Positions 11,794 to 51,909 are shown, counted from the stretch's first letter. The stretch is 60,350 nt of DNA from Oscillospiraceae bacterium (GCA_045631305.1 JAZQUM010000022.1:1-60350); one strand, 5' to 3'. Numbers and translations are program-made. The notes: generated from the letters alone by a model not told the origin.

Positions 11794-11811
11794 TTTCTCT
11801 ATCCAATCTCT

Positions 11812-30653: not shown

Positions 30654-32478
30654 CGCACTTGCCTCCTACCAGATGATTTGCGCCGCAGGCATTGCACTTA
30701 GTGCGGCAATCGGCCGTGGTCTCCCCGCGATAGGCCTTTTCACGTTCACGCCACAGATATTCTTCGGTAACGCCGCTGGAAATCATGTGCCAGGGCATCA
30801 CTTCTCCCTTTTCGCGGACGCGGTTTGCATAGAAATGGGGATCCAGACCGCATTCTTCAAAAGCTTCCAGCCAACGGTCCAGACGGAAATATTCTTCCCA
30901 CGCATCCAGCTTGGCGCCCTTGCGCCACACCTTTTCCATCACGGCACACATGCGTCTGTCACCGCGGGCAAGGACTGCTTCCATAAAACTGGTATCAGAA
31001 TCGTGCCAGTTATAGTTCACAGTCTTGGTGTGGATCTCACTGCGCAGCAGATTCACGCGGCGCTCATATTCTTCCTTGGAGATCTGGGGTTCCCACTGGA
31101 AAGCCGTGTGGGGCTTGGGAACGAACCAGGAAGTGGAAACCGTGATGCGGACACCGCGGTTCTTGTTCTTGGCGTATTCACGCCAAGTGTGCATCACATG
31201 GGCTGCGATCTCGGCAATGCCCTTGATGTCTTCGTCCGTTTCGGTGGGAAGGCCCAGCATAAAGTAAAGCTTCACAGAGTTCCAGCCGCTGGCAAAAGCG
31301 CGCTGCAGCGTTGCCATCAGGTCTTCTTCCGTCAGGTTCTTGTTGATCACATCGCGAAGGCGCTGGGTGCCTGCTTCAGGCGCGAAGGTAAGGCCGATCT
31401 TGCGGCCCTTGGCCAGGCGCTCGGTAAGGCCCATAGAGAAGTTATCGGCACGCAGGCTGGGAAGAGACAGAGTAATGTGGCCCTTTTCGCAGAATTCATC
31501 CATATCGTCCACCAGCTGCTCCAGAGGAGGATAGTCGCTGGTGCTGAGAGAGGAAAGGGTCATTTCCTGATAGCCGGAATTGCTGCATGCTTCCATGCCG
31601 TACTGCGCGCAGAGGTCTTTGCTTCTGTTGCGGACAGGGCGATACACATAACCTGCCTGACAGAAGCGGCAGCCGCGGATACAGCCGCGGAAGAGTTCCA
31701 GCATCACGCGGTCCTGCACGATCTCTGTGGAGGGGACGATGGTCTTGGTGGGGAAATAGGACTTGTCCATATCCTGCACGATACGCTTGGTCACCTTGGC
31801 AGGTGCGCCATGGGTAGGCGTAATGGACTTCACGGTACCATCTTCGTTGTAATCAATCTCATAGAGGCTGGGTACATACAGACCGGGGATCTGGGCAGCC
31901 GCGATCAGCAGCTGCTCCTTGCTCCAGCCCTCGCGCTTGGCGCGGCGGTAGAGTTCGATGAGTTCCACCGTTACATCTTCACCTTCGCCAAGGCTCACGA
32001 TGTCGATAAATTCCGCTACAGGCTCAGCATTGTACATACCGGTACCGCCGGCAATCACCAAAGGCGCAAGACCCTTGCGGTCCTTGGCATAAATGGGCAC
32101 ACCTGCAAGATCCAGCATATTAAGGATGCCGGGGAATGCCATTTCGTAACCCACAGAGAAACCGATCATATCAAAGTCACCGATGGGGTCACCGGATTCC
32201 AGCGCAAAGAGAGGAATGCACTCTTTGCGCATTTCCTCTTCCATGTCGCCCCAGGGGGCAAACACACGCTCGCACCATACACCGGGCATGTTATTCATCA
32301 CGCCGTAAAGAATACGCATGCCAAGGTTGGACATGCCGATCTCATATGTATCAGGGAAGCAGAAAGCAAAACGCACTTCCACATCCTTTTTATCCTTCAT
32401 AATGGCATTGTATTCGCCGCCTACATAACGGGCAGGCTTCTGTACCTTGGGAAGGATTCGTTCCAATCTCTTATCCAC
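30646..32478 (-). CDS. TIGR03960-type B12-binding-domain radical SAM protein
   Basis: 610 aa, CxxxCxxC cluster motif CIRGCRFCQAG, GTG start. Confidence 0.85.
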   Translation of the reverse strand: MDKRLERILPKVQKPARYVGGEYNAIMKDKKDVEVRFAFCFPDTYEIGMSNLGMRILYGVMNNMPGVWCERVFAPWGDMEEEMRKECIPLFALESGDPIGDFDMIGFSVGYEMAFPGILNMLDLAGVPIYAKDRKGLAPLVIAGGTGMYNAEPVAEFIDIVSLGEGEDVTVELIELYRRAKREGWSKEQLLIAAAQIPGLYVPSLYEIDYNEDGTVKSITPTHGAPAKVTKRIVQDMDKSYFPTKTIVPSTEIVQDRVMLELFRGCIRGCRFCQAGYVYRPVRNRSKDLCAQYGMEACSNSGYQEMTLSSLSTSDYPPLEQLVDDMDEFCEKGHITLSLPSLRADNFSMGLTERLAKGRKIGLTFAPEAGTQRLRDVINKNLTEEDLMATLQRAFASGWNSVKLYFMLGLPTETDEDIKGIAEIAAHVMHTWREYAKNKNRGVRITVSTSWFVPKPHTAFQWEPQISKEEYERRVNLLRSEIHTKTVNYNWHDSDTSFMEAVLARGDRRMCAVMEKVWRKGAKLDAWEEYFRLDRWLEAFEECGLDPHFYANRVREKGEVMPWHMISSGVTEEYLWREREKAYRGETTADCRTKCNACGANHLVGGKCDV

Positions 32479-35189: not shown

Positions 35190-36041
35190 ATGGCAACTTT
35201 TACCAACTTTGCCACATTATCCTATAGCGGCGGCATCACCAATTCCAACACCGTCACAGGTGAACTTCTGGAAACTCTCTCTGTCACCAAGACCGCTGTA
35301 ACAGATAATTATACCGCGCAGGATAATATCACCTATATCATTACCCTTATCAATAGCGGCACCACGCCTTTGACCAACCTCACCCTCACCGATGATCTGG
35401 GTGCGTACACGTTTGTGGAAGGTCCCGTCTACCCTCTCGCATACACCGAAAACTCCTTGCGCTACTATGTAAATGGCACCCTGCAGCCCACACCCGCCGT
35501 TACCGCAGGGCCGCCTCTTGTAATGAGCGGCATCAGCGTGCCTGCCGGCGGGAATGCCACGCTGGTCTATGAAACTTCCGTCACCGCATTTGCGCCTCTC
35601 GCCTCTGCCAGCACCATCACCAATACCGTTACCGTCACCGGCGGTGGTCTGGCTTCTCCCCTTACCGCACAGGAAACCGTCACCGCTGAAAATACCGCCC
35701 AGCTCACCATCAGCAAGGCCGTCTGCCCCGCCGTGGTCGCTGAAAACGGGCAGCTGACCTACACTTTCGTCATTGAAAATCTGGGCAACACCGAAGCCGA
35801 TGCAGCCGATGCAGCCGTCCTTTCTGACATCTTCGATCCCATTCTCGATCCCATCACCGTTTCCTATAACGGTGTCACCTGGACCGAAGGCACCCAGTAC
35901 ACCTATGACGCCACCACAGGAACCTTCGCCACCCTCCCCGGGCAGATCACTGTTCCTGCAGCCACCTACACGCAAAACACCGACGGCACCTGGACCACTA
36001 CTCCCGGCACCGCCGTTCTCACCATCACCGGCACAGTATAA
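35190..36041 (+). CDS. Two-domain DUF11-like (conserved repeat domain) protein without a signal peptide
   Basis: 283 aa, Thr/Val/Asn-rich beta-type sequence. Two units: ...LSVTKTAVTDNYTAQDNITYIITLINSGTTPLTNLTLTD... and ...LTISKAVCPAVVAENGQLTYTFVIENLGNTEA... No N-terminal hydrophobic segment. GGAGG SD. Confidence 0.7.
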   Translation: MATFTNFATLSYSGGITNSNTVTGELLETLSVTKTAVTDNYTAQDNITYIITLINSGTTPLTNLTLTDDLGAYTFVEGPVYPLAYTENSLRYYVNGTLQPTPAVTAGPPLVMSGISVPAGGNATLVYETSVTAFAPLASASTITNTVTVTGGGLASPLTAQETVTAENTAQLTISKAVCPAVVAENGQLTYTFVIENLGNTEADAADAAVLSDIFDPILDPITVSYNGVTWTEGTQYTYDATTGTFATLPGQITVPAATYTQNTDGTWTTTPGTAVLTITGTV

Positions 36042-36164: not shown

Positions 36165-36241
36165 TGGTCGGAGTGTCGGGATTCGAACCCGAGGCCTCTT
36201 GGACCCGAACCAAGCGCGATACCAAACTTCGCCACACCCCG
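36165..36241 (-). tRNA. tRNA-Pro (anticodon CGG), CCA encoded
   Basis: Hand-folded 77-nt cloverleaf: CGGGGTG TG GCGA AGTTTGGTA TCGC G CTTGG TTCGGGT CCAAG AGGCC TCGGG TTCGAAT CCCGA CACTCCG A CCA. Confidence 0.9.
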
Positions 36242-36556: not shown

Positions 36557-37180
36557 TTATGCTTCCGGGGCTGCAACACGCTCACAGCGTACTGTGACGC
36601 GAGCCTTGCCGCCATAATTGCAAGTAAAAAGGGACAAATCGTAGCCACTATTCACCATGCCTTCAATATCCGTTGCTGCCACGGTGTAGATTTCTTTCAC
36701 TTCAAAGAAGGTCTGTTTCCCTTCCAGATCCGTAAACACGATACTCTCACCGATGGACAGCGTGCTCAAGCCACTGAAATGTCTCTTATAGTTGTGACCC
36801 GCGATGACGAATTCGCCATCCTGCAGCGTGCCGGAATAGCGGCAGGGAGAAGTTTTCAGCTTTTCCGTGCTCCAATCGCTCTGTATCGGCAAGATCTTCT
36901 CCAGCGCAGGAATGGTCAGCACGCCCATGTAATAAGCGCCATCCAGTTCTGCAACCTGCAAACGCTCAGCATTGTAGCCATCTTCCACATCCAGGATGTC
37001 CATTCCGTCTCCCTGGATGCTTTCCACGATAGCTATCGCTGCAGCATCGCTCTGCACACCCGCCTGATAATCAACCCACAGATTGTAACCAAAAAGGCCA
37101 CCGGCACCCAGAATCAAAACAAGACCCAGCAGGATGCAAATCTTACCTGCGGACAGCCGCTTTTTCTGATTCTGCTCCAT
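36557..37180 (-). CDS. Sortase (non-class-C; candidate cell-wall anchoring sortase of the pilus locus)
   Basis: N-terminal TM anchor and catalytic triad contexts VIAGHNY, LFTCNYGG and RVTVRCE. Starts 2 nt after the base pilin stop. Confidence 0.8.
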   Translation of the reverse strand: MEQNQKKRLSAGKICILLGLVLILGAGGLFGYNLWVDYQAGVQSDAAAIAIVESIQGDGMDILDVEDGYNAERLQVAELDGAYYMGVLTIPALEKILPIQSDWSTEKLKTSPCRYSGTLQDGEFVIAGHNYKRHFSGLSTLSIGESIVFTDLEGKQTFFEVKEIYTVAATDIEGMVNSGYDLSLFTCNYGGKARVTVRCERVAAPEA

Positions 37181-37182
37181 AA

Positions 37183-38010
37183 TTACTGCTCCGCTTTCTG
37201 TTTGCGTTCACTGGCAGCACCAATGGCTACCAATGCAAGACCTACAGCAACCATCACGGGGATAGGCCACTGCAGAAGGCCAGTCTGAGGCAGTTCTGCC
37301 AGAGGAACTTCTTCTTCAAAGATTTCTTCCTCGAAACCACCTGCTCCACCCTGAGGAACATCACCGTCCGGGATTTCTTCTTCGGGAGGATCACCAGGGC
37401 TCAGGGGAGGCTCTTCATCGGGGACCTCTTCTTCAGGAGGATAATAAGGTCTGGCTTCTACTTTAGGCTGAGAAACCACATCCATCACCCAACCGTCACC
37501 GGTTGCATTGGTGTAAGGCAGCTGCAGCAGGAAAGGCACAATACCCTTATAGTTGATAGTTTCACCAGTTACCACCAGATAAACACCAACGGGCAGATTT
37601 TCAAACGTAGCTACGCCGCCATCATTGGTCATTGCAGTCCAAGTGGGAACAGTAACGCCTTCTTCCAGCTTGTCGATAGCTTCTTTCAGCACCTTGGCAT
37701 TATTAGTGTTAGCTTCAGCCGTCAAACCGTCGAGCTTAATACGGGTGCTTGCCAGTGCATCTACCAGCTCGAAAACCAGATTGCTGTTTTCAGTCTTGCC
37801 ACTGCCAACCTGATAGAGCGTTACATCCAAATTGGAAACCTTGATGGCGCTGTCTTTTTTCACCAGCGTCACGCTCACGCTTCCCTTGTCTGCCTCGGGA
37901 TCTACAGTCAGTTTGCCTGCAGCCATAGCAGTGCTGCTCATAGCCAGAATCAGCGTCAGTGCCAATACCAGCACTACTCCTACACGAAATTTGTTTTTCA
38001 TAAGCCTCAT
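37183..38010 (-). CDS. Base (minor) pilin with LPQTG sorting signal and acidic Pro/Glu-rich stalk
   Basis: Signal peptide ...AMSSTAMA/AG and one Ig-like SpaA/Cna-B-type domain (GGVATFENLPVGVYLVVTGET). Pilin-motif-like GWVMDVVSQPK. 52-aa stalk PYYPPEEEVPDEEPPLSPGDPPEEEIPDGD... LPQTG plus TM plus a basic tail. Confidence 0.75.
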   Translation of the reverse strand: MRLMKNKFRVGVVLVLALTLILAMSSTAMAAGKLTVDPEADKGSVSVTLVKKDSAIKVSNLDVTLYQVGSGKTENSNLVFELVDALASTRIKLDGLTAEANTNNAKVLKEAIDKLEEGVTVPTWTAMTNDGGVATFENLPVGVYLVVTGETINYKGIVPFLLQLPYTNATGDGWVMDVVSQPKVEARPYYPPEEEVPDEEPPLSPGDPPEEEIPDGDVPQGGAGGFEEEIFEEEVPLAELPQTGLLQWPIPVMVAVGLALVAIGAASERKQKAEQ

Positions 38011-38035: not shown

Positions 38036-38860
38036 TTACTTAGTTCTTTTCTTTCTGCCCTTCAGCGACAAAATCGTTACAAAGGCAATCAGCATGGGAA
38101 TCGCCACAATGGGTGTCACGATCAACGCATCTATCTGAATGGCATCTGCCGTTACACGGGCGGCAACTGCATCGATTGCGCTGTTATCCACTCTGTGACC
38201 GCGCACCAGCATGCGGTGGGTGTTGATGCCATATGGTGTGCAGGTGACGAGCGTACAGTAGTCTTCCCCTTCTACAATGGCCAAATCATCCATCTCCTGG
38301 GGCAACACAATCGTAATCTGGTCCACCTGATAGGTCAGCACATCGTTCAGCACCACAATGGTAAAGATATCGCCAACCTCCACCTGATCCAGGTCAGTAA
38401 ACAGTTTTGAGGAAGGCAAACCGCGATGCCCGGTAAGGACGGCGTGAGTACTCTCCCCACCTACAGGAAGAGACGAGCCCGGCATACAGCCGACACCCAC
38501 CTGCAAAACAGCTTCATCCGTGCCCAAGTACATAGGAAGCGTTACGCCAATGGAGCGAATTTCAATATAACCAATCGCTTTGTTATCGGCGCCCAGGTGG
38601 CGTTTATAAGCCTCCACTTCCTCCTCTGTAGGAGAAAAACGGGTATCGTTGGTCAATAGAGACACATTGTAAGCATTGGCTGCGTCCATTTCTTCTTTGT
38701 AAACATCCGGGTCAACCTGTGTCATGCTATCAATGTAATTTGCAATAGCACGGGACTGACTGCGGGAATTTACATAGTTTGCAATCGTAGGATAAAGCAG
38801 CACGGAGAGGCCCACGAGAAAAATGATTCCCAATATAATGGTGGATAAATGTTTTCTCAT
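38036..38860 (-). CDS. Class C (pilus-polymerising) sortase
   Basis: N- and C-terminal TM segments, ...AVLTGHRG...TLVTCTPYGINTHRMLVRGHR... GGGAGA lies 6 nt before the ATG at 38860. Confidence 0.85.
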   Translation of the reverse strand: MRKHLSTIILGIIFLVGLSVLLYPTIANYVNSRSQSRAIANYIDSMTQVDPDVYKEEMDAANAYNVSLLTNDTRFSPTEEEVEAYKRHLGADNKAIGYIEIRSIGVTLPMYLGTDEAVLQVGVGCMPGSSLPVGGESTHAVLTGHRGLPSSKLFTDLDQVEVGDIFTIVVLNDVLTYQVDQITIVLPQEMDDLAIVEGEDYCTLVTCTPYGINTHRMLVRGHRVDNSAIDAVAARVTADAIQIDALIVTPIVAIPMLIAFVTILSLKGRKKRTK

Positions 38861-38884
38861 AGATTTCTCCCTGATGCTCCATCG

Positions 38885-38912
38885 GGAGCCGGGGGCAAAA
38901 GCCCCCAGCTCC
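38885..38912 (-). promoter_or_regulatory. GC-rich intercistronic hairpin between backbone pilin and sortase C (no U-tract)
   Basis: GGAGCCGGGGGC-aaaa-GCCCCCAGCTCC, 12-bp stem with one mismatch. Confidence 0.4.
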
Positions 38913-38957
38913 ACGGAGTGAAATGTCTTAAAGCTGTGTTTTGCTATGTAGCGTTAA

Positions 38958-40349
38958 TTACTGTTCGTTAGCCATCTTCTTCTTGGTAACGAAGAGAACG
39001 AATGCAGCAACCATCATCACGCCACCAACGATGTAGAAGATGGTGGTGCCTACGCCACCGGTGCTGGGCAGCTGGAAACCGGTCAGGTTAACGATCTGAA
39101 CGCCACCAGCATAGGTGCCATCACCATTATCGGTAGCCACATTGTTACCAGTAAGAACAACTTCTTCACGGGCAGCCAGCAGATTGTAGCCTTCAGGAGC
39201 TGCGGTTTCTTCCAGATAGTAGGTGCCAGCGCCAAGACCTTCAATTACAACCTTGCCTGCAGCGATGGTAGCACCTTCGCCAGTCTGGGTAGCATCAGCT
39301 ACGCGATAAGTGTTGTTTCCCATATCAACCAGCTTGATTTCGTTGCCAGCAGTTGCAGCATCATACAGCTTGAAGCTTGCGCCATCAAGAACCACGCCGT
39401 CCTTGGTGATCTTGATCAGATCGAACTTGTAGGTTTCAACCTTAACGGTAGAAGGAGCGGAAGTCTGTGCGGAATAGGTCAGCCATGCGGTGTTGTCGTT
39501 GGTTGCGCCATAGATTTCAGCATCCTTGTCGAGTTCAGCAGAGTAAGTAATAACGATCTGTGCGCCATCATCATACTGAGAAGCATCAAGTACTACTTCG
39601 AAAGTGCATTCATCAGAGGGAGCAACGTATGCATAGGGAGCGCCATCAACCTTGATGCTATCGGTATTCAGGGTCAGGCCAGCTTCCATTACATCGTGAA
39701 CGGTGATGTTCTTGTCGGTACCAATGCCGTCAGTAACAACGATCTTGTATTCAACGGTATCGCCAATGGTGTAGTTCTTGTTAGCAACAGTGTCATCGCC
39801 AAAGGTCTTTACAAGGGAGGGAACAGCGTTCTTTTCGATTACACCTACTTCAGCGTCGCTGGTCTGCAGAGCGCACAGAGCACCAAGGCCGGAGTCGATG
39901 AAGTAGTAACCTGCATCAGTAACACTAAGAGTAACGGAAGTGGAGTCAGCAGTTGCAGTTGCCTGAGCGGTCTTGCCAGAAACCTTGTCTGCAAGATACA
40001 GAGCGAAAGCTGCAGCGTCCAGGGAGTTACCTTCTACAACGTAGAGATTAGCATTGGTAGCAGAGGGGGTCAGCTTCAGGCCGTTGCCTTCATAAACGCC
40101 GTTGGTAAGTTCGCTGTCGTTGATATATGCAACAACATCAGTCCACCATGCGGAACCCTTGGTAATGGTATAAGCATAGCCAGTGCCTTCTGCACCAAAG
40201 GTGCCGGTAGCCTTTACATCGAATACCTTATAGGCGTTATATTCTTCGCCTGCTACTGCGTTGGTAATATCAATAGTTGCAGCGGATGCATTAACGGCGA
40301 GGGCCAGCATCATAACGAGGGCCAGAGCCAGAGAGAACAGTTTCTTCAT
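38958..40349 (-). CDS. Backbone (major) pilin, LPSTG-anchored
   Basis: Signal peptide ...AVNASA/AT, N-terminal YNAYKVFDV, multiple Ig-like domains and E-box-like GTYYLEETAAPEGYNL. QLPSTGG plus TM plus KKK tail. Strong SD AGGAG and codon usage typical of highly expressed genes. Confidence 0.8.
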   Translation of the reverse strand: MKKLFSLALALVMMLALAVNASAATIDITNAVAGEEYNAYKVFDVKATGTFGAEGTGYAYTITKGSAWWTDVVAYINDSELTNGVYEGNGLKLTPSATNANLYVVEGNSLDAAAFALYLADKVSGKTAQATATADSTSVTLSVTDAGYYFIDSGLGALCALQTSDAEVGVIEKNAVPSLVKTFGDDTVANKNYTIGDTVEYKIVVTDGIGTDKNITVHDVMEAGLTLNTDSIKVDGAPYAYVAPSDECTFEVVLDASQYDDGAQIVITYSAELDKDAEIYGATNDNTAWLTYSAQTSAPSTVKVETYKFDLIKITKDGVVLDGASFKLYDAATAGNEIKLVDMGNNTYRVADATQTGEGATIAAGKVVIEGLGAGTYYLEETAAPEGYNLLAAREEVVLTGNNVATDNGDGTYAGGVQIVNLTGFQLPSTGGVGTTIFYIVGGVMMVAAFVLFVTKKKMANEQ

Positions 40350-40420: not shown

Positions 40421-43201
40421 TCAATCAGCAACAACACGTCTCCGTCTTCTCTCCTGTTCCATAAGAACAAGACTTGCGCCGATCATCAGCGCCGTACCGG
40501 TGGCCACATACACTCCAGTACCGATACCACCCGTATTGGGAAGCATCGCGCCGGTGGTGTTAGTGAAGTAAATAGTTACCGGAGCTGTTCCCACAGTTGC
40601 CTGTGCAGTTGCACCATGAATAGCTGCCGATCCATCAGACTCCAGCGTCCAACTGGGGGCATATCCATCATAGTCAGTTTCTGTCACAGTAACGGTTGTG
40701 CCAACGGGCAAACCGTTGATGGTCACGGTGGTTCCTGCAGGAATCTGCAGATCGGTTGCCACACCATTATCATCAAAAGTAATCGTCGTGGGCAGCTCTT
40801 CGTTGGTAGGTTCGTAAGTTAAATCGTAGGTGCCAGCCACTGCAGCATCGCTTGCAGTCTTTGCAGATACTTCAAAAGTAAAGGTGCCACTGTTTTTAAT
40901 CACACCGTCTACCTTGACGTTCTTGCTGATTGCCAGGCTCCCGTTATTTAGGAGTTCTACGTTTACTACCGCCTCAGTTCTGCTATCCTTCATCATGGCA
41001 CTGTAGAGATCGTTGTCCTGAACAAGTGCACCGGGCGCAGTAGTATAGCAAAGGGTGACAGTTGCGCCTTCGAGGGTAGGATCTGCCAAATAACCATTGG
41101 GCACAGTCTCTGTCAAAGTGTAAGTGCCACAAGGAAGACCAATGAAAGAAACTAAGCCGTTAGCATCACTTTCTTCGGTATATTCCTTGCCGGACACACC
41201 AGTCATCGTAAAGGATACACCCTCCATAGGATTACCGCTGCCGTCTACTTTGTTCAGGTAGTAGTTGTACAGCAGACCCTGAACCTGGGGAGAAACGGCT
41301 TCCAGCTGTCCCTCGCTGTTTTCGGTGGCGCTGCTTGAGCCTTTGCCTGCGCGCCCTTCCTTAACAACGATCTTCTTATAATTCAGGACCGTTTCACTAT
41401 TGGTCTCATAAATGCTATCGCTGGTATCTACGGTCTGCGGAGTGTTGTTATACGGATCTGTCTGATTAGGAGCACAACTTACAAATCCATCTGCCTCCAC
41501 ATCCAAAGAAACCTTATAAAGAACACGGTAGTTCGTCCAGAAGATATTGCCGTCCTTGGAATTCACTACTTCATCTTCGGTCGAACCGGCGGCAGCACTT
41601 AAATCCCAGGTGCCTACATTGTTTCTATCAACAGTAAAGGTACCGTCGCTAGTAACAACGCCTTCGAAATTGATATAGGGAACTCCCTGCGCCGTTACAT
41701 TGCTGCCAATGACATCTGTCACAGTCTCAAAAGAAATCTGCGTATCAACGAACAAGTCACCCAAATTCGAATTATTCTTTTCATAGATCTCGATGGTGAT
41801 TGTCCGGTTACCGGATTCAATCTGATTTTTCAGACTGATTCTGTTAACTGCAACAGTCTTTCCCAAAGAGGGAACATACATCAGGAAGGAACCGTTCTGA
41901 CAGTTCGGCGTCTCGCCATAGCAAGATCTGGGTTCCGTCTTATAGGCCGGGGAACCATCCGAAGGGTGAATGTTCAGAATCAAAGTATATTCATGAACAT
42001 TCTCCAGTTCAGGAGGAACATCATCCTCGTCGAAATACAATATGGTGGTCTTACCGGCAACACCTGCAGCGGTTATATCACCCTCATAGAAGTCATTCGA
42101 ATACTTATTGGAACTGGTCAGCACTGAAAAACCGGAACTGTACAGCAGATTTTCCCAACCTGTTTTAGCGCCTACTTCCAAATAAATATAGAACTCATTC
42201 TCCACATCCGTGGACATAACTTCCTTGCGAATTCGTACATTCCCGTCGTCGCTGTATCTATAAGCGAAGTTGGAATCATACTCACCGCTGACAATCTGCC
42301 AGGTGTTACCCTTGGGATCATCACTTAAATAATAGCTTGCCAGTTCTTCATCGTATCTGTTTATACCATAGAATGCCCCGAAAAGTCCAATGCCTTCAGG
42401 CAGCTCGTAGCAGCTATCCTCATGGATATGTTCTTCCAGGCCGCAGCTGAGAATTTCTTCGTAGCACTCTTCGGTGTGGGTGTGAGCAGGAACAGCTTCC
42501 TTTTCTTCCAGACCGCAGGTGTAAACATCCTGTTCTTCGTAGCAAGCGTCTTCGTGGGCATGGCCCGCAGTTACCGTCTTGCCACAAGTCAGGCCGATGC
42601 AGCTTTCCCCGTGGGAGTGAACGTCTGCTTCGTCCTTGCCACAGCTGAGCTTCTGTTCTTCGGTGTAGCAGCTGTCATCATGCTGATGAACAGGAGCTTC
42701 TTCCAAAGTGCAGGTCTGCTCACCAGACTCAGCATCGAAACAACTATCACCGTGGGCGTGACCTGCGGGAGTTTCGCAAGCCAGCTTCTTTTCCGTGGTG
42801 TAGCAAGCTTCGCTATGGGCGTGACCCTCAGTTTCTGCTTTACCACAGGTGTAACTGTAGCATTCTTCTTCGTGTGTGTGTGCTTCGCACTCTTCTTTCC
42901 CGCAGATGCAAACATTCTGCTTTTCAGAAACACATCCGACTTCTGCGTGGGAATGACCTTCCTCACCTTCGCTCGCTTCGGAGCCACAAGTGAACTGCAC
43001 TTCATAGCACATTTCGCTATGTTCGTGCGCATCCATCCCGCAGATTGTTTCATCCGCCATAGCAGAAGCGGGCTGCACCAGCAAATATGTAGTAGTCAAA
43101 GACACTATCAAAGCCAGTGCGGCGAATAAGGCGTATGCCTTACGGCGCTTGGACCGCGCTTTCATAAAAGCATTAGCCATCAGCCTTATGCTTTCATGCA
43201 T
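40421..43201 (-). CDS. Large LPNTG-anchored pilus tip/adhesin candidate
   Basis: Signal peptide MKARSKRRKAYALFAALALIVSL...PASAMA/DE and an N-terminal Cys/His repeat array. A ~340-aa central region has no recognisable motifs. Two C-terminal Cna-B/SpaA-like domains are present (GLVSFIGLPCGTYTLTETVPNGY; TVTINGLPVGTTVTVTETDYDGY). MLPNTGG plus TM plus RRRRR. The start is uncertain: ATG at 43201 is preferred, the ORF is open to 43285, and ATGs at 43180 and 43165 are also possible. Confidence 0.75.
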   Translation of the reverse strand: MHESIRLMANAFMKARSKRRKAYALFAALALIVSLTTTYLLVQPASAMADETICGMDAHEHSEMCYEVQFTCGSEASEGEEGHSHAEVGCVSEKQNVCICGKEECEAHTHEEECYSYTCGKAETEGHAHSEACYTTEKKLACETPAGHAHGDSCFDAESGEQTCTLEEAPVHQHDDSCYTEEQKLSCGKDEADVHSHGESCIGLTCGKTVTAGHAHEDACYEEQDVYTCGLEEKEAVPAHTHTEECYEEILSCGLEEHIHEDSCYELPEGIGLFGAFYGINRYDEELASYYLSDDPKGNTWQIVSGEYDSNFAYRYSDDGNVRIRKEVMSTDVENEFYIYLEVGAKTGWENLLYSSGFSVLTSSNKYSNDFYEGDITAAGVAGKTTILYFDEDDVPPELENVHEYTLILNIHPSDGSPAYKTEPRSCYGETPNCQNGSFLMYVPSLGKTVAVNRISLKNQIESGNRTITIEIYEKNNSNLGDLFVDTQISFETVTDVIGSNVTAQGVPYINFEGVVTSDGTFTVDRNNVGTWDLSAAAGSTEDEVVNSKDGNIFWTNYRVLYKVSLDVEADGFVSCAPNQTDPYNNTPQTVDTSDSIYETNSETVLNYKKIVVKEGRAGKGSSSATENSEGQLEAVSPQVQGLLYNYYLNKVDGSGNPMEGVSFTMTGVSGKEYTEESDANGLVSFIGLPCGTYTLTETVPNGYLADPTLEGATVTLCYTTAPGALVQDNDLYSAMMKDSRTEAVVNVELLNNGSLAISKNVKVDGVIKNSGTFTFEVSAKTASDAAVAGTYDLTYEPTNEELPTTITFDDNGVATDLQIPAGTTVTINGLPVGTTVTVTETDYDGYAPSWTLESDGSAAIHGATAQATVGTAPVTIYFTNTTGAMLPNTGGIGTGVYVATGTALMIGASLVLMEQERRRRRVVAD
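42407..43042 (-). repeat. Ten tandem protein-level Cys2-His2 repeats inside the tip gene
   Basis: Units share C-G-x(3-9)-H-x-H-x3-C-[YFIV], for example TCGKAETEGHAHSEACY, TCGKTVTAGHAHEDACY and SCGLEEHIHEDSCY. The nucleotide units are diverged. Confidence 0.8.
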
Positions 43202-43380: not shown

Positions 43381-43983
43381 TTACTTAAAATTGCCCATCT
43401 GATTCAGAGGCCAGATGCGGAACACTACCTGCCCCAACACCTGCTCTTTGCTGATGCAGCCCACCGCGGTGGTGCGGCTGTCCAGCGAGATGTCTCTATC
43501 GTCACCCATCATAAATACCTTGCCGTCCGGCACCTGATAAGGTAACTCGATATTGCATTCGCCCAAAGCTTTTTCAGCGAGATAAGGTTCATCTAACTCG
43601 ACACCGTTCACATAAACGTTACCGTATCGGTCGATATCCACCCAGTCACCGCTTTGTGCGATAACACGCTTGATCAGGATCTTATTGTTATAGTAGAAAG
43701 CAGCAATGTCGCCGGCTTCAAAATCATCGTTTTTTACAGCTATTACGAACTGTCCGTCTATCAAGGTCGGTTCCATGCTGGCACCGGTGATCTGCAGCAC
43801 GGGCATCCACAGCGTTGCAATGAGGATTGCCACAGCAGCCACCACAGCCAGGGAATACAGCGTGCCTCTCAGGGCCTTGCCGTAATTGCTTTGGAATTTC
43901 AGTCGGTTGATCTCGGCTTCCATTTCATCGAGAGTGGGATATTCCAGCGGTTCTTTCCGCTTGTCTTTCTGACTGTTAAGCAT
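43381..43983 (-). CDS. Signal peptidase I, second copy, encoded inside the pilus locus
   Basis: One TM and catalytic Ser box ITGASMEPTL. Lys box IKRVIAQSGD and GDDRDISLDSR are present. GGAGGGG SD; 8-nt overlap with the upstream ORF. Confidence 0.85.
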   Translation of the reverse strand: MLNSQKDKRKEPLEYPTLDEMEAEINRLKFQSNYGKALRGTLYSLAVVAAVAILIATLWMPVLQITGASMEPTLIDGQFVIAVKNDDFEAGDIAAFYYNNKILIKRVIAQSGDWVDIDRYGNVYVNGVELDEPYLAEKALGECNIELPYQVPDGKVFMMGDDRDISLDSRTTAVGCISKEQVLGQVVFRIWPLNQMGNFK

Positions 43984-44251
43984 CCGGCATCCCCTCCTCT
44001 TTGGAGACAGCCTTCACACTCAGGAGATATTCGTCAGCAGCTTTCTGCGCCGCTTCGAAAATACCGTTGAGTTTCAGTGCCGCTTCGGCGATTGAACCGG
44101 ATTCTGCAATCTGAATTTCTCGTTTAGCAAGAGCTTCTTCTTTTTTAGCAAGGTCTGCGCGGAGCTTTTGCAGTTCGCGTTCTTGCTGAGCCAGGAGTTC
44201 CAGCAGCTGAAGCTTACTTAAATTCCGCAAAGGATTTTTTTCTTTCCTCAT
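43976..44251 (-). CDS. Small coiled-coil protein, function unknown
   Basis: 91 aa, basic N-terminus, heptad-rich LLELLAQQERELQKLRADLAKKEEALAKREIQI, then ESGSIAEAALKLNGIFEAAQKAADEYL. GAGGAGGG lies 5 nt before the ATG at 44251. Confidence 0.55.
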   Translation of the reverse strand: MRKEKNPLRNLSKLQLLELLAQQERELQKLRADLAKKEEALAKREIQIAESGSIAEAALKLNGIFEAAQKAADEYLLSVKAVSKEEGMPDA

Positions 44252-44252
44252 C

Positions 44253-44447
44253 TCAGCCCTCCTCTTCCTTCGCATCGTCCTGCTGCGAAGAGGACTCTGT
44301 CAAAGCGCTGTCCATCAGGCGAATCATTTCCAGTGCGCTGCGGAAGCTTTCTTTCTTGTTCCGATTGAGCCAGTTGATACTTCCCTGCCAGGAGGCGTTC
44401 TGCTGATCCACGATTTCAGCTAAAAATGTCTGTTTTTCGTGTTTCAC
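44253..44447 (-). CDS. Small acidic-tailed protein, function unknown (first ORF of the pilus operon)
   Basis: 64 aa, no TM, GTG start with AAAGGAG 8 nt upstream. Its stop lies 1 nt before the next ATG. Confidence 0.45.
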   Translation of the reverse strand: MKHEKQTFLAEIVDQQNASWQGSINWLNRNKKESFRSALEMIRLMDSALTESSSQQDDAKEEEG

Positions 44448-46536: not shown

Positions 46537-47643
46537 TTACTGTGCTTCCTTAGCAGCCTTGATAGCTTCGATCAGCATGGGAGTAACCTTGAACAGGTCG
46601 CCGCAGATGCCGTAGTCAGCAGCTTCAAAGATGGGAGCATATTCGTTCTTGTTAACAGCGATGATGCATTCAGAATCCTGCATACCGGCCTTGTGCTGGA
46701 TAGCACCGGAGATACCGAGAGCAACATAGATTCTGGGATGTACGGTCTTACCGGTCTGGCCAACCTGGTGGTCAACACTGATCCAACCGGAGTCAACAAC
46801 AGCACGGGAAGCGCCTACAACGCCGCCGAGAACATCTGCCAGTTCCTGAGCCAGAGCCAGGCCCTTTTCAACGTCCTTGGAAATACCACGGCCAACGGAA
46901 ACAACAACGTCAGCACCGATGAGGTCAACTGCCTTCTTAGCAGCCTTAACGATCTCAACAACTTCGGTCTTGAGGTCAGCAGCGGTCAGTTCGAATTCGG
47001 GATGAATGATTTCAACCTTAGCAGCCTTTTCAGCATCGTAAGGAGCCTTCTTCATAACGCCGGGACGAACGGTAGCCATTGCGGGACGGAAACGGGGGCA
47101 GATAATGGTAGCCATCAGATGGCCGCCGAATGCAGGGCGGGTCATCTTCAGGTCACGGTTCTTTTCATCGAAGGTCATGCTGTCAACATCCAGAGTGGAG
47201 GAAGAACGCAGGAAGTCCTTGTAAACGCCTACGTCGATGTCCAGGTGGGTGCAGTCAGCGCACAGGCCGGTGTGCAGACGAGCTGCGCAACGGGGTGCCA
47301 GGTCGCGGCCGATATTGGAAGCACCGAACAGCAGAACTTCGGGCTTGATGTCAGCTACGCAATCAGAAATAACCTTGGTATAAGCATCGGTGGTGTAATC
47401 CTTCAGCAGAGGAGAATTGCACACGTATACCTTATCGGCACCGTGGCCACCGATTTCAGCTGCCAGATTGTCAACGTTGTCGCCCAGCAGAATGCCGCAC
47501 ATTTCAACGCCGAGTTCGTCAGCCAGCTTGCGGCCTTCGGAAACCAGTTCGAGGCTGGTGGGCATCAGTTCGCCACCGCGCTGCTCACAAAACACCCAAA
47601 CGTTCTTGAAAGCAGCAATATCAGAACTATTAAAATTCTTCAT
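46537..47643 (-). CDS. etfA: Electron transfer flavoprotein alpha subunit
   Basis: ...NVWVFCEQRGGEL...TRPAFGG...VGQTGKTVHPRIYVALGISGAIQH... Confidence 0.9.
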   Translation of the reverse strand: MKNFNSSDIAAFKNVWVFCEQRGGELMPTSLELVSEGRKLADELGVEMCGILLGDNVDNLAAEIGGHGADKVYVCNSPLLKDYTTDAYTKVISDCVADIKPEVLLFGASNIGRDLAPRCAARLHTGLCADCTHLDIDVGVYKDFLRSSSTLDVDSMTFDEKNRDLKMTRPAFGGHLMATIICPRFRPAMATVRPGVMKKAPYDAEKAAKVEIIHPEFELTAADLKTEVVEIVKAAKKAVDLIGADVVVSVGRGISKDVEKGLALAQELADVLGGVVGASRAVVDSGWISVDHQVGQTGKTVHPRIYVALGISGAIQHKAGMQDSECIIAVNKNEYAPIFEAADYGICGDLFKVTPMLIEAIKAAKEAQ

Positions 47644-47660
47644 ATTCTATCTCCTTTCAA

Positions 47661-48461
47661 TTAAATGATGTGCTTTGCAGCAAGAATGGAAGCCAACTTT
47701 TCGCAGTCAGCCTTATCAGCGCCGGGCAGCATCATGCCTGCGCCCTTCTGGGGAGGCGTAAAGGACTTGAAGATGTTGGTGGGAGAACCCTTCAGACCGA
47801 TGGTAGTAGCATCGATGAGAGCGTGGTCCTTCAGATCTTCGTAACCCATGACGCGCAGAGGCTTGGAATAAGCTTCGAATGCGCCGCCAACGGAGAGGTA
47901 ACGAGGAGTATTGAGTTCCTTGATGCAGGTAATCAGGCAAGGAGTCTTAACATTGATAACCATGTAGCCGTCTTCCAGAACGCGCTTGATGGTCAGGCAA
48001 TCGCCATCCTTCTTGATGTCTGCAGCATAAGTAACCTGGGGAAGATCCAGCTTTTCAGCGATCTGGGGACCAACCTGAGCGGTGTCACCGTCGATAGCCT
48101 GACGGCCGGAGAATACTACGTCGTCTGCATCGAGACCGATGGTGTCGATAGCAGCGGCCAGGATCTGAGAGGTAGCGAAGGTATCGCTGCCGCCGAATTC
48201 ACGAGCGGATACCAGAACGCCTTCGTCAACGCCCATAGCCATCAGTTCACGGAGCATGCCCTCTGCGGGAGGGGGACCCATGGTAACTGCGATAACCTTG
48301 CAGCCGGTTTCTTCCTTGAGCTGGAGAGCGGCTTCAACGGCGTTCATGTCGTCGGGGTTGATGATGGTCTGCATGGAAGCGCGGTTCAGAGTACCGTCGG
48401 GATTGACGGCTACCTTACCGGAGGTATCGGGAACCTGCTTTACGGTAACAATAATTTTCAT
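47661..48461 (-). CDS. etfB: Electron transfer flavoprotein beta subunit
   Basis: MKIIVTVKQVPDT...NPDDMNAVEAAL... Confidence 0.9.
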   Translation of the reverse strand: MKIIVTVKQVPDTSGKVAVNPDGTLNRASMQTIINPDDMNAVEAALQLKEETGCKVIAVTMGPPPAEGMLRELMAMGVDEGVLVSAREFGGSDTFATSQILAAAIDTIGLDADDVVFSGRQAIDGDTAQVGPQIAEKLDLPQVTYAADIKKDGDCLTIKRVLEDGYMVINVKTPCLITCIKELNTPRYLSVGGAFEAYSKPLRVMGYEDLKDHALIDATTIGLKGSPTNIFKSFTPPQKGAGMMLPGADKADCEKLASILAAKHII

Positions 48462-48476
48462 CCTGATCCTCCTCCC

Positions 48477-49619
48477 TTACTTAACGCCCAGGTTAGCAGA
48501 GATTACCATTCTCTGAACTTCGCTGGTACCTTCATAGATCTCAGTGATCTTAGCGTCACGCATCATGCGTTCAACCTGATATTCGCGGATGTAGCCGTAA
48601 CCACCGAAGAGCTGAACTGCACGGCGGGTAACATCACTTGCTGCTTCAGCTGCAAAGAGCTTAGCCATAGCTGCGTCCATGGTGTAGGGTTCGCCGCACT
48701 GCTTCTTCATAGCTGCTGCATATACCATGTACTGAGCAGCCTGCATGCGGGTGTGCATGTCGGCCAGCTGGAACTGAGTGTTCTGGAACTGGCTGATGCG
48801 CTTCTTGAACTGCATACGTTCAGCAGTATACTTGATAGCTTCGTTAACAGCGCCTTCACCAAGACCCAGAGCCTGTGCAGCGATACCAATACGGCCGCCG
48901 TCCAGAGTCTTCATAGCGATCTTGAAGCCTTCGCCTTCCTTGCCCAGGAGGTTTTCCTTGGGAACGATGCAATCTTCGAAGATCAGGTCGCAGGTGGAAG
49001 AACCACGGATACCCATCTTCTTTTCGTGCTTACCGCAGGAGAAGCCGGGGAAGCTCTTTTCAACGATGAATGCGGAGATACCACGGGTGCCCTTGCTCTT
49101 ATCGGTCATAGCAAATACTACGAATACGTCAGCAACGTTACCGTTGGTGATGAAGCACTTGGAACCGTTGAGAACATAGTGGTCGCCTTCGAGAACAGCA
49201 GTGGTCTGCTGGCCGGAAGCGTCGGTACCTGCTTCGGGTTCGGTCAGGCCGAATGCACCGATCTTCTTACCGGAGCACAGGTCAGGCAGATACTTTGCCT
49301 TCTGTTCGGCATTACCGTTTTCAAAAATGGGAGCGCAGCACAGAGAGGTGTGTGCGGAAACAACTACTGCAGTAGTACCGCAAACCTTGGCCAGTTCTTC
49401 TACGCACATTGCATAGGAAAGAACGTCGCCACCGGCGCCACCGTATTCCTTGGGGAAATAAATACCCATCATACCCAGCTTGGCCATCTTTTCGACGGTC
49501 TCCATGGGGAAGCGTTCCTGTTCATCGATTTCTTCAGCAAGAGGCTTTACTTCGTTTTCCGCAAATTCACGGAACATCTTACGAACCAGCATCTGCTCTT
49601 TAGAGAGATGAAAATCCAT
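48477..49619 (-). CDS. bcd: Butyryl-CoA dehydrogenase (short-chain acyl-CoA dehydrogenase)
   Basis: 380 aa acyl-CoA dehydrogenase, ...GLTEPEAGTDA...IYEGTSEVQRMVI...; operon context with etfBA. Confidence 0.9.
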   Translation of the reverse strand: MDFHLSKEQMLVRKMFREFAENEVKPLAEEIDEQERFPMETVEKMAKLGMMGIYFPKEYGGAGGDVLSYAMCVEELAKVCGTTAVVVSAHTSLCCAPIFENGNAEQKAKYLPDLCSGKKIGAFGLTEPEAGTDASGQQTTAVLEGDHYVLNGSKCFITNGNVADVFVVFAMTDKSKGTRGISAFIVEKSFPGFSCGKHEKKMGIRGSSTCDLIFEDCIVPKENLLGKEGEGFKIAMKTLDGGRIGIAAQALGLGEGAVNEAIKYTAERMQFKKRISQFQNTQFQLADMHTRMQAAQYMVYAAAMKKQCGEPYTMDAAMAKLFAAEAASDVTRRAVQLFGGYGYIREYQVERMMRDAKITEIYEGTSEVQRMVISANLGVK

Positions 49620-49667
49620 AACTAAACTCCTTTACTCAGATTAAACTCTTGTTCAGTATTGTACGGA

Positions 49668-50504
49668 TTACTTGGAGTAATCGTAGAAGCCCTTACCGGT
49701 CTTCTTGCCCAGCAGGCCGCCGCGAACCAGCTTCTTCAGAAGCAGAGCGGGACGATACTTGGAGTCGCCGGTTTCATTGTACAGAGTTTCCATGATAGCC
49801 AGGCAAACGTCCAGGCCGATGAAGTCGCCCAGAGCCAGGGGACCCATGGGATGGTTTGCACCCAGCTGCATAGCCTTGTCGATGTCAGCAACGGAAGCAA
49901 CGCCGGTTTCAACCAGGCCAGCAGCTTCGTTGATCATGGGGATGAGGATCTTGTTAACTACGAAGCCGGGAGCTTCAGCAACTTCAACGGGATCCTTGCC
50001 GATTTCCTGAGACAGAGCATAGATGGTCTTGAAGGTTTCTTCCTTGGTGTTAGCACCGCGGATGATTTCAACCAGCTTCATGCTGGGAACGGGATTGAAG
50101 AAGTGCATACCGATGAGGTCATGGCTCAGGCCGTTGCCCATTTCGGTGATGGAGAGAGAAGAGGTGTTGGAAGCGAAGATAGCTTCGGGCTTGCACAGAG
50201 CGTCCAGTTCCTTCAGCAGAGCCTTCTTGGTGCCCATTTCTTCCTTAACACATTCGATAACCAGGTCAGCGTCAGCGCATGCGCACTTTTCAGCAACCAG
50301 AACGTTTGCCAGAAGAGCGTCAACTGCTTCCTGAGTCATCTTACCCTTTTCAACGCGCTTAGCCAGAGACTTAGCCAGCTTGTCCTTATGACGCTGAGCA
50401 GATTCAACGGAGCTTGCATACAGCAGAGCGGTGTGACCCTTAGCTGCGAATACCTGAGCGATGCCGCTACCCATAGTGCCGGCGCCAAAAATAGCAACTT
50501 TCAT
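49668..50504 (-). CDS. hbd: 3-hydroxybutyryl-CoA dehydrogenase
   Basis: [20 protein letters not shown] Rossmann motif, ...HFFNPVP... Confidence 0.9.
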
Positions 50505-50577
50505 GATATATCCTCCAAATAAATAAGGTAATGTTAATTTTATAACTTTCGATTTATTTCGTCAAGGGAAAAAGCGA

Positions 50578-51834
50578 TTAGCACTTTTCAACTACGACTG
50601 CAGTACCCATACCGCCGCCGATGCACAGAGTAGCAAGACCCTTCTTAGCATCTTCGCGCTTAGCCAGTTCGTGTACCAGAGTAACGATGATACGAGCACC
50701 GGAAGCACCTACGGGGTGACCCAGAGCGATAGCGCCGCCGTTAACGTTCAGCTTAGCGGTGTCGAAGCCCAGTTCACGGCCAACAGCGATGGACTGTGCA
50801 GCGAATGCTTCGTTAGCTTCGATCAGGTCGATATCGTCGATGGTAACGCCAGCCTTTTCCATTGCCTTGCGGGAAGCGGGAACGGGACCAACACCCATGA
50901 TCTTGGGGTCTACGCCGCCCTGGCCCCAGCCGATGAGCTTAGCCATGGGCTTCAGGCCCAGCTTAGCAACTGCTTCGCCGGAAGCGAGAACGATAGCTGC
51001 AGCACCGTCATTGATACCGGAAGCGTTAGCTGCGGTTACACGCTGCTGACCCTTGTCTTCGCTTTCCTGAACGCCGGTGGGAACGAAGGTGTGAACAACC
51101 TGGGGAGCGGGAGATTCGGGACCTACGGGGAATGCACCGCGCAGCTTAGCAACGCTTTCAGCGGTAACGCCAGCCTTGGGATATTCGTCCTTCTTGAATT
51201 CAACGATTTCCTTCTTAACCTTTACGGGAACGGGAACGATTTCATCATCGAAACGGCCAGCAGCCTGAGCGGCTTCTGCCTTCTGCTGGGAAGCAGCTGC
51301 GAAAGCGTCCTGTTCGGCACGGGAGATGCCCCAGATGTCGTTGATGTTTTCAGCGGTGGTGCCCATGTGATAGTTGTTGTAAACATCCCACAGACCATCG
51401 TTTACCATGGTATCAACCAGCTTGGTGTTACCCATGCGAGCGCCGTAACGAGCAGCGGGCATAGCATAGGGAGCTGCGCTCATGTTTTCGGTACCGCCGC
51501 AAACAACGACTTCAGCGTCACCAGCGAGGATGGAGCGAGCGCCTTCGATAACGGACTTCATACCGGAACCGCAAACCATACCAACGGTGTAAGCGGGAAC
51601 GGAGAAGGGAATGCCAGCCTTAACGGAAACCTGGCGAGCAACGTTCTGGCCCAGGCCTGCGGTCAGGATGCAGCCGAACATGAGTTCGTCAACGTTTTCG
51701 GGAGCAACGTTTGCGCGCTTGAGAGCTTCCTTAACAGCGATAGCGCCCAGTTCAGCAGCGGGTACGTCCTTCAGAGAACCACCAAAAGAGCCGATAGCGG
51801 TACGGCAGCAGTTTACGATATACAGTTCCTTCAT
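50578..51834 (-). CDS. thl: Acetyl-CoA acetyltransferase (thiolase) with an internal ~25-30 aa insertion
   Basis: ...VCGSGMKS...[11 protein letters not shown]...[17 protein letters not shown]...CIGGGMG... GGAGGAA lies 6 nt before the ATG at 51834. Confidence 0.9.
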
Positions 51835-51909
51835 TGTTATTTCCTCCAAAATTTTATTTCGTTTGTTGTATTTTAAATTTTAATAATTCTTAATGGTAAG
51901 TCGCGGGAA

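Follow-up and report, generated by a model that had tools for sequence, protein, structure and literature searches.

Repeated Cys2His2 units behind a long leader form a widespread, unnamed head module of sortase-anchored surface proteins in anaerobic gut Firmicutes

Ten Cys2His2 units in a predicted tip pilin

A stretch of DNA of 60,350 nucleotides from an Oscillospiraceae bacterium (GCA_045631305.1, JAZQUM010000022.1:1-60350), analysed over its whole length and called the window below, carries a sortase-pilus cassette on its minus strand (44275 to 36557, counted from the first letter of the window). The open reading frame (ORF) at 40421-43201 (minus strand) translates into one protein of 926 amino acids (aa), the predicted tip pilin of the cassette. 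A regular-expression scan of this protein gives ten matches in all to the unit C-x(4-10)-H-x-H-x(3-4)-C, spread over aa 54-264. A preliminary description of the locus, made from the DNA sequence alone, had reported ten such Cys2His2 units at the N-terminus, and they are real: in 20,000 composition-preserving shuffles of the 212-aa region the number of units averaged 0.22 and never exceeded 3, against 10 observed, and the number of HxH pairs averaged 1.6 with a maximum of 6, again against 10. The array is laid out as a short cap, long inner units and a second short cap:

42407..43042, minus strand: Cys2His2 array of ten units, aa 54-265
43007..43042, minus strand: unit 1, CGMDAHEHSEMC then Y, aa 54-65; short cap form C-x4-HxH
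42932..42988, minus strand: unit 2, CGSEASEGEEGHSHAEVGC then V, aa 72-90; irregular, with four residues from HxH to Cys
42860..42904, minus strand: unit 3, CGKEECEAHTHEEEC then Y, aa 100-114 (98/100-114 in the pattern scan); extra Cys at aa 98 and 105
42803..42847, minus strand: unit 4, CGKAETEGHAHSEAC then Y, aa 119-133
42740..42778, minus strand: unit 5, CETPAGHAHGDSC then F, aa 142-154; AlphaFold2 (AF2) predicted local distance difference test score (pLDDT) ~78-91
42668..42712, minus strand: unit 6, CTLEEAPVHQHDDSC then Y, aa 164-178; AF2 pLDDT ~90
42599..42643, minus strand: unit 7, CGKDEADVHSHGESC then I, aa 187-201
42542..42586, minus strand: unit 8, CGKTVTAGHAHEDAC then Y, aa 206-220
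42464..42517, minus strand: unit 9, CGLEEKEAVPAHTHTEEC then Y, aa 229-246
42410..42445, minus strand: unit 10, CGLEEHIHEDSC then Y, aa 253-264; short C-terminal cap form

The ligand bookkeeping of the array is strict. All 20 of its His lie within the ten HxH pairs, and 20 of its 22 Cys are the paired Cys of the units, the two others being C98 and C105; the remaining 652 aa of the protein hold just 5 Cys and 3 His. In unit 3, C100-G101 agrees with the family register C-G-x-E-E. Gaps from the first Cys to the HxH pair are 4, 10, 9, 7, 5, 7, 7, 7, 10 and 4 residues in units 1 to 10. The H-x-H-x3-C spacing given in the preliminary description is found in nine units, but not in unit 2, which has four residues where the others have three. 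An aromatic residue directly follows the second Cys in eight units (seven Tyr and one Phe; the others have Val and Ile). The array is strongly acidic, with 55 Asp and Glu residues against 9 Lys and no Arg in 212 aa.

At the DNA level, Tandem Repeats Finder reports no tandem array over the repeat region, and the best unit-to-unit matches are only 65-78% identical across 18-30 nucleotides. It follows that the units are old and that it is the protein sequence that is maintained, in line with the divergence of the nucleotide units that had been described before. Biased composition (21% Glu), and nothing else, could speak for an artefact of chance or low complexity, or for a frame that is not coding. 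That explanation is refuted by the shuffles, by thousands of homologues in the same register, and by the single long ORF with pilin domains and an LPXTG-type signal, and its probability is negligible.

Family size and unit anatomy

With the repeat region alone as query, 142 proteins were retrieved, all of them annotated as hypothetical or without a name; with the whole protein as query, 382 were retrieved, most of which match just the first ~29% (leader and repeats). A family profile built from 61 sequences and run against 1.84 billion representative proteins finds 6,989 clusters at E<=1e-3, 5,584 at E<=1e-10 and 3,430 at E<=1e-30. Named sources are Lachnospiraceae, Oscillospiraceae (including Pseudoflavonifractor phocaeensis), other Clostridia, Erysipelotrichaceae and Atopobiaceae, every one of which is an anaerobe-rich group. 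A single-protein scan of genome contigs of GTDB representatives yielded only three loci from Lachnospiraceae metagenome-assembled genomes, matched through the repeat region; the source species is thus either absent from these representatives or represented there without the gene. The number of units per protein is 5-45 across the family and 8-45 among the top 141 new profile matches, of which 111 have an LPXTG-like C-terminus.

The consensus of 1,638 units is L-x-C-[GT]-x-E-E-x-E-G-H-T-H-T-[DE]-x-C-Y, with a modal repeat period of 23 residues; a Cys-to-His gap of 7 residues occurs in 880 units and one of 4 in 439. Conservation is broader than the Cys, HxH and aromatic positions to which it had been thought limited, and extends to a Leu at -2 from the first Cys, the Gly that follows this Cys, the Glu-Glu pair, and an Asp or Glu two residues after the second His (75% of units). 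Consecutive HxHxxxC motifs have a single Cys between them in 1,356 of 1,518 cases. Over 261 proteins with 3,950 units, the four canonical positions take up 88% of the His and 90% of the Cys of the arrays, while HxH itself is present in 100% of counted units by construction of the search anchor; outside the arrays of these proteins, His makes up 1.3% and Cys 0.6% of residues. Of 197 members, 194 open the array with the short C-x4-HxH form; x7 prevails among inner units, and in 93 of the 197 arrays, as delimited here, the last unit is short. The 61-sequence consensus terminates in LxCGxEEHxHxxxCY. The window protein has the marks of the family throughout: a leader with the first HxH at residue 59, at least five units that open with a short cap, and a signal peptidase gene immediately upstream.

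Behind this head the members carry diverse payloads: VWA with SpaA and PF21426, CHAP with SpaA and Cna_B, DUF7601/DUF5979, PA14, or FctA. Many predicted tip proteins (P0171, encoded at 8001-12377 of the related locus L003; P0241; P0128; P0204) carry a CHAP domain right after the array, and in P0241 it lies inside the array. A CHAP domain, of the peptidoglycan hydrolase type, is unusual at a pilus tip, where its targets could be other bacteria or, during extrusion, the wall of the cell itself.

Some members have an ordinary signal peptide instead of the family leader. One of them, P0054 (356 aa; L008 7001-8071), has the same Cys2His2 units and is encoded within a SipW/TasA(BsaA)-type operon for biofilm fibres (L008 3752-12619), beside a VWA protein of 991 aa. 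From P0054 it follows that the module can be used without the leader and the signal peptidase, in a second, unrelated extracellular fibre system. Array and leader together define a family, large and as yet without a name, of N-terminal heads of sortase-anchored surface proteins from anaerobic gut Firmicutes and a few Coriobacteriia.

Searches for a known domain

Neither the leader nor the repeat belongs to a Pfam or NCBIfam family, and no zinc-finger family of Pfam was matched, in scans of the window protein and five canonical relatives. At E<=1 Pfam has no line on the repeat region, and the sole NCBIfam line there, TIGR03267 (E 0.15, 11 bits against a cut-off of 365), is a chance match below threshold. 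Sequence searches of the PDB with the repeat region and with the 61-sequence profile gave 0 matches at E<=10, and Foldseek comparison of the AF2 array model with the PDB gave nothing at E<=0.001 and only spliceosome noise at E>3. The repeat was not found described in the full-text literature, which was also searched with literal motif strings. The earlier failure to recognise a named module is thereby borne out by profile, sequence and structure searches alike. Attachment of c-type haem was dropped as a candidate because CxxCH is lacking, as were Rieske and other Fe-S sites, for which the spacing is wrong and there is no sign of cytoplasmic cofactor loading. The head is a new, widespread and unannotated domain with its leader on an otherwise known type of pilus.

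Predicted structure and the constant head

An AF2 model of aa 48-300, made with the family alignment, has a mean pLDDT of 64 and a predicted template-modelling score (pTM) of 0.30, with local stretches at ~90. In most units the local pattern is a short helical turn that ends at the second Cys and then a beta-strand from the aromatic residue onwards. Together with the caps and the fixed register, this modelled pattern suggests a continuous folded array instead of beads on a string.

In a subgroup of relatives (P0129-P0152, for example at L004) identity is 92-99% over the 315-aa head but, with one comparison excepted, 39-50% over the middle and tail, and the payload domains differ (PA14, FctA, DUF7601). 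Such a design of constant head and variable payload suggests, from the sequences compared, that the adhesive part undergoes recombination or diversifying selection. P0123 and P0205, the relatives nearest to the window protein, which share its leader subtype and its payload, retain the opening unit and the final 2-5 units, and in place of the inner units they have a low-complexity linker of ~250 aa rich in Pro, Glu and Ala. P0128 has both inner units and such a linker. Because these three proteins swap them, inner units and an acidic extended linker are interchangeable in nature. The linker swaps favour a spacer or extension and disfavour a specific ligand-binding surface, which is among the roles proposed in the preliminary description.

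Payload, stalk and cell-wall anchor of the tip protein

Downstream of the array, the 926-aa protein comprises four further parts:

41282..42406, minus strand: all-beta payload whose fold family has no match, ~aa 266-640; the variable part of the tip protein
41075..41260, minus strand: SpaA/CnaB-type prealbumin-like stalk domain, aa 648-709; PF17802, 3.8e-11
40559..40942, minus strand: DUF7601/DUF5979 immunoglobulin-like (Ig-like) domain, aa 754-881; PF24547, 1.7e-13, and PF19407, 1.7e-6
40424..40543, minus strand: cell-wall sorting signal LPNTG, aa 887-926; read from the sequence

The payload region has no Pfam or PDB sequence match. Its AF2 model (pLDDT 72, pTM 0.71) is almost entirely beta-strand and has no Foldseek match at E<=0.001; the sole high-probability match, a weak resemblance, is to the tip pilin GBS104 (3txa, prob 0.93, E 0.03, 198 columns). 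The same payload is common to P0122, P0123, P0128, P0166, P0228 and P0204, some of which also have CHAP. PDB sequence matches of the stalk domain are to CnaB-type parts of surface proteins (9uvr, 8wxd, 3rkp). The sorting signal consists of LPNTG, 23 hydrophobic residues and then EQERRRRRVVAD, an RRRRR tail, and its match to Gram_pos_anchor is weak (E 0.027). No VWA domain was matched at E<=1 (PF00092 or PF13519), so that the protein does not qualify as an adhesin with a metal-ion-dependent adhesion site (MIDAS), and no thioester-domain family is among its Pfam and NCBIfam matches at E<=1; both absences had been noted for the repeat module in the preliminary description.

A long leader and an adjacent signal peptidase I

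Two features lie directly before the array, the leader within the tip gene and, upstream of it, a gene for a signal peptidase I (SPase I):

43061..43201, minus strand: family-specific long leader, aa 1-47 (aa 1-50 with a cut after AMA)
43381..43983, minus strand: SPase I, 200 aa; Peptidase_S26, 1.4e-33; TIGR02227 sigpep_I_bact, 121 bits against a cut-off of 47

The leader of the window protein consists of an n-region, a basic cluster (SKRRK), an h-region (ALALIVSLTTTYLLV) and then QPASAMA. Among 114 family members aligned on the first HxH the consensus is MKHTLxxKAxELxRKxRRRRWRR..AAVVVFCTTYALILPAITME...CG.EEHxH, with a ~50-aa leader in which the basic cluster is followed by an h-region that ends in ..TTYxL(I/V)(L/Q)PAxTM; the window leader, which reads SKRRK..ALALIVSLTTTYLLVQPASAMA, fits this family leader, also with TTTYLLVQPASAMA. 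Most sampled members share the leader, and its length is fixed, which places the first HxH at residue ~59 in 114 of 120 proteins. In the window protein it is likewise at residue 59, which supports the ATG at 43201 as the start. Proteins preceded by intact SPase I genes were observed to carry a leader of fixed length, ~50 aa (..TTYALILPAITME). Cleavage would take place near PASA (aa 47) or AMA (aa 50): the site after PASAMA named in the preliminary description is possible, as a cut after AMA, but the family alignment also allows one after PASA. An arginine-rich, long n-region and a moderately hydrophobic h-region give some family leaders a faintly Tat-like look. A Tat-type leader is one candidate: a few members read RRxFLK (P0243, RRRSFLKG), but the consensus RRRRW[RK][RK] fits poorly.

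In the window the SPase gene is directly upstream of the tip gene, and an SPase homologue is immediately upstream of the repeat-headed gene in seven of seven related loci (L001-L007). The catalytic motifs of the window enzyme are intact, namely GASMEPT with the Ser, IKRVIA with the Lys, and the box GDDRDISLDSR (GDxRxxSxDSR), and they are conserved in 5 aligned homologues. Because the Ser and Lys motifs are intact and the enzyme is encoded directly before a protein with a family-specific leader, the arrangement points to a dedicated pair of leader and peptidase, and to real cleavage.

Pilus cassette and genomic setting

Apart from the tip and SPase genes, the cassette contains:

43976..44275, minus strand: coiled-coil protein, 99 aa, first cassette gene; no Pfam match, no signal peptide
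38958..40349, minus strand: major (shaft) pilin, 463 aa, LPSTG; SpaA, GramPos_pilinBB, Gram_pos_anchor, TIGR04226 and SpaH/EbpB-family matches
38036..38914, minus strand: class C (pilus-polymerising) sortase; NF033745 class_C_sortase, 260.7 bits against a cut-off of 160
37183..38010, minus strand: minor pilin, 275 aa, Pro-rich tail and LPQTG; GramPos_pilinD1, 1.9e-6
36557..37180, minus strand: second sortase, 207 aa, last cassette gene; Sortase PF04203, 5.5e-16

The coiled-coil protein, perhaps DivIVA-like, shares the motif AGSIAEAALxLNGxFEAAQxAA with homologues encoded shortly before the SPase gene in four related loci, L002-L005 (genes at L002 7027-7341, L003 6925-7362 and L004 6968-7387). 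The major pilin contains the E-box-like YYLEETAAPEGY. The minor pilin is probably the basal pilin, judging from its gene position and Pro-rich tail. Homologues of the second sortase occupy the equivalent position in L002-L004. As far as contigs reach, the order SPase, large LPXTG protein, major pilin, class C sortase, minor pilin, sortase recurs, and the order tip gene, major pilin, class C sortase is found also in L002-L005 and L007. The 926-aa protein has a sorting signal and CnaB/IgG-like stalk domains, and shares an operon with the major pilin and the class C sortase. Its assignment as tip pilin, which draws on synteny, gene order and size, is supported by the recurrence of the gene order in related loci, and the earlier description of the protein as a pilus tip protein is consistent with that order.

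The cassette lies among core chromosomal genes (PolC, Lon, ClpX, trigger factor, the butyrate pathway), and an origin from a mobile element was dropped on account of these flanks; a tblastn search of PLSDB plasmids with the head gave no match. A complete butyryl-CoA cluster (46537-52686, minus strand; thiolase, crotonase, 3-hydroxybutyryl-CoA dehydrogenase, acyl-CoA dehydrogenase, EtfB and EtfA, thl-crt-hbd-bcd-etfBA) marks the source, by its gene content, as a butyrate-producing anaerobic Firmicute; the Bcd protein of the cluster has no exact copy in the collection searched. A terminator-like hairpin (44696-44661) closes the GNAT gene that precedes the cassette. Immediately downstream of the last sortase gene is a tRNA gene:

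36165-36241, minus strand: tRNA-Pro(CGG)

This tRNA gene has its own promoter-like site at 36282-36254, a perfect TTGACA-17-TATAAT. An ORF with DUF11 repeats (283 aa, 35190-36041, plus strand), with no obvious signal peptide, converges on the pilus cassette; it is overlapped by a longer antisense ORF, so that either strand may be the coding one. Modification of the array by the product of a radical-SAM gene (30646-32478) was dropped as a candidate because this gene is outside the conserved cassette.

Possible roles of the array

The array is best read as an acidic extension, stapled by metal (probably Zn), that would form the distal end of the tip pilin and have a mainly architectural role. 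As a combined statement this seems probable by a narrow measure, whereas metal binding by the units, taken on its own, seems reasonably probable from the sequence pattern. After export, the co-encoded SPase would cut the leader near PASA/MA. Each unit would then fold round a single divalent metal ion. This would most likely be Zn2+, which is what one expects of Cys2His2 sites by default; the ligands would be the first Cys, both His of the HxH pair, on the same face of a strand, and the second Cys at the end of the short helical turn. A tetrahedral metal site is suggested by the strict bookkeeping of 2 Cys and 2 His, since a disulfide would not need the His, and exposed thiolate ligands are plausible because the source taxa are anaerobe-rich groups. 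Ten stapled knuckles with their beta-strands would make an elongated, very acidic extension, rigid or elastic and tolerant of proteases and force. As sortase pili grow from the base, the array would be the most distal part of the pilus. An architectural role is favoured by the interchangeability with a linker and by the constancy of the head, which would be a constant spacer or extension ahead of the variable adhesive payload and not a specific receptor site.

Several points weigh against this reading. The AF2 model of the whole array is weak, with about one third of residues at pLDDT <50, and the ligand order C..HxH..C has no counterpart among the solved zinc motifs found by the searches. At a free N-terminus it is not obvious what a spacer would hold out, which weakens the purely architectural reading; the first unit or the array surface may bind something. 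The very high conservation of the head is unexpected on an exposed tip if it is immunologically visible, and might mean that the head is removed or acts only during assembly. The tip location, moreover, is deduced from synteny.

The same ligand conservation would also be expected if metal occupancy were itself the function, that is, if the array captured or buffered Zn (or Ni, Co, Cu or Fe) at the cell periphery or served metal-bridged sticking to partners, for which pneumococcal histidine-triad proteins and the Zn-dependent SasG/Aap repeats, respectively, are models. The many and variable sites per protein (5-45) agree with such metal handling or metal-dependent adhesion, and the 55 acidic residues together with the Asp or Glu that follows the second His could raise capacity or exchange. 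It is nevertheless unlikely: no gene for a metal transporter or metallochaperone is in the conserved cassette, the replacement of inner units by a Pro/Glu linker would be odd if the metal sites mattered, and Cys2His2 sites are typically tight and structural, not exchangeable. Metal-free thiol chemistry, in which the His tune the Cys and the units form internal disulfides, sense redox state or oxygen, or make mixed disulfides with host mucin, draws on the two Cys per unit in loops of 12-18 residues and on the anoxic habitat of the source taxa, where free thiols could persist. A disulfide loop leaves unexplained, however, why the His are as invariant as the Cys and lie in HxH; the cassette has no gene for a thiol-disulfide oxidoreductase, and disulfides are unlikely to form outside strict anaerobes. 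Such chemistry is very unlikely to be the main function.

A further alternative treats leader and repeats as a pro-region for export or assembly, which would act with the SPase and perhaps a sortase in export competence, in threading through the wall or in marking the first subunit, and might be trimmed later. The strict co-occurrence of leader, first unit and SPase in seven of seven loci and the fixed leader length agree with it, as does a head far more conserved than the payload, which is expected for contact with conserved machinery; some streptococcal pili need SPase homologues for assembly (PMC7900414). Against it stand the occurrence of the repeat behind ordinary signal peptides and outside sortase loci (P0054), the lack of an evident processing site after the array, and arrays of up to 45 units or on both sides of a CHAP domain (P0241), which look like mature structure. 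A pro-region of this kind is quite unlikely.

A bolder form of the metal-stapled extension is entertained tentatively, as something short of probable: that this is the first extracellular bacterial array resembling zinc fingers, exported by its own pair of leader and SPase, and that it makes up the constant distal head of polymorphic tip proteins across gut Clostridia, with VWA, CHAP, PA14 or unassigned payloads, and works as a metal-gated device. Possible variants of a metal-gated head are a reversible, self-healing mechanical element, or a metal-dependent contact surface that reports Zn or gut oxygen.

Relation to known systems

The shaft, sortases and anchoring of this system are those of an ordinary sortase pilus, and the novelty lies in the head and leader. 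Like the tip adhesins RrgA, GBS104, SpaC and EbpA (VWA/MIDAS) and Cpa (thioester), the window protein is encoded by the first and largest pilin gene and has an N-terminal signal, a CnaB/SpaA stalk and LPXTG. Many members of the head family carry VWA together with the GBS104-like Ig domain PF21426, as in adhesins of the GBS104 type. Unlike the VWA and thioester tip adhesins, the window protein has neither domain, and the long conserved leader is specific to the head family. To our knowledge, no described tip pilin begins with a head of Cys/His repeats. SPase I homologues are encoded within other pilus operons: SipA/LepA in S. pyogenes FCT-2/3/4, and those of S. pneumoniae PI-2, group B Streptococcus PI-2b and C. 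perfringens VR-10B (PMC7900414; PMC8088525). Streptococcal SipA/LepA has lost its catalytic residues and is regarded as a chaperone (PMC7900414). The window system is thus like the SipA/LepA pili in having an SPase gene in the pilus operon, but differs in that the Ser/Lys motifs are intact in all five aligned sequences of the window type.

With zinc knuckles, zinc ribbons and C2H2 fingers the array shares units of 20-30 residues, four Cys/His ligands, tandem arrangement and an expected metal-dependent fold. The spacing of its units, C-x(4-10)-H-x-H-x(3-4)-C, however, fits neither fingers (C-x2-4-C-x12-H-x3-5-H) nor knuckles (C-x2-C-x4-H-x4-C), and it is extracellular and strongly acidic, whereas zinc fingers are basic, intracellular and bind nucleic acids. 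In the Pht proteins (PhtA/B/D/E) the motif HxxHxH is repeated on a Gram-positive surface, with one Zn expected per motif. The Pht motif is without Cys, in units far larger and fewer, on proteins that are neither anchored by sortase nor placed on a pilus; in the array there is no HxxHxH, all His being in HxH, and no match to the Pfam family Strep_his_triad. By analogy, the array may work like a zinc-knuckle array and like the Pht zinc repeats without relationship to either. Pro/Glu-rich spacers of Gram-positive surface proteins resemble it in being acidic, repetitive and variable in length among relatives, and natural swaps with a Pro/Glu linker occur; the array differs in consisting of ordered, ligand-bearing mini-domains with caps, placed at the free N-terminal end and not next to the wall anchor.

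Implications for gut Clostridia

Gram-positive bacteria rely mainly on sortase pili as organelles of long-range adhesion, and what is known of these pili comes almost entirely from aerobic or facultative pathogens and lactobacilli. The pilus type described here appears to be abundant in gut Clostridia, and its tip proteins open with one unannotated module that occurs in at least 6,989 clusters; defining the head family would clear a large block of hypothetical sequence in the annotation of gut metagenomes. The constant head and its dedicated SPase would serve as handles for annotating tip adhesins in metagenomes, for broadly reactive reagents and for engineered display. If the units bind metal, extracellular Cys2His2 arrays would represent a structural principle new to the surface fibres of anoxic habitats, and would link metal availability and oxygen exposure in the gut to bacterial attachment.

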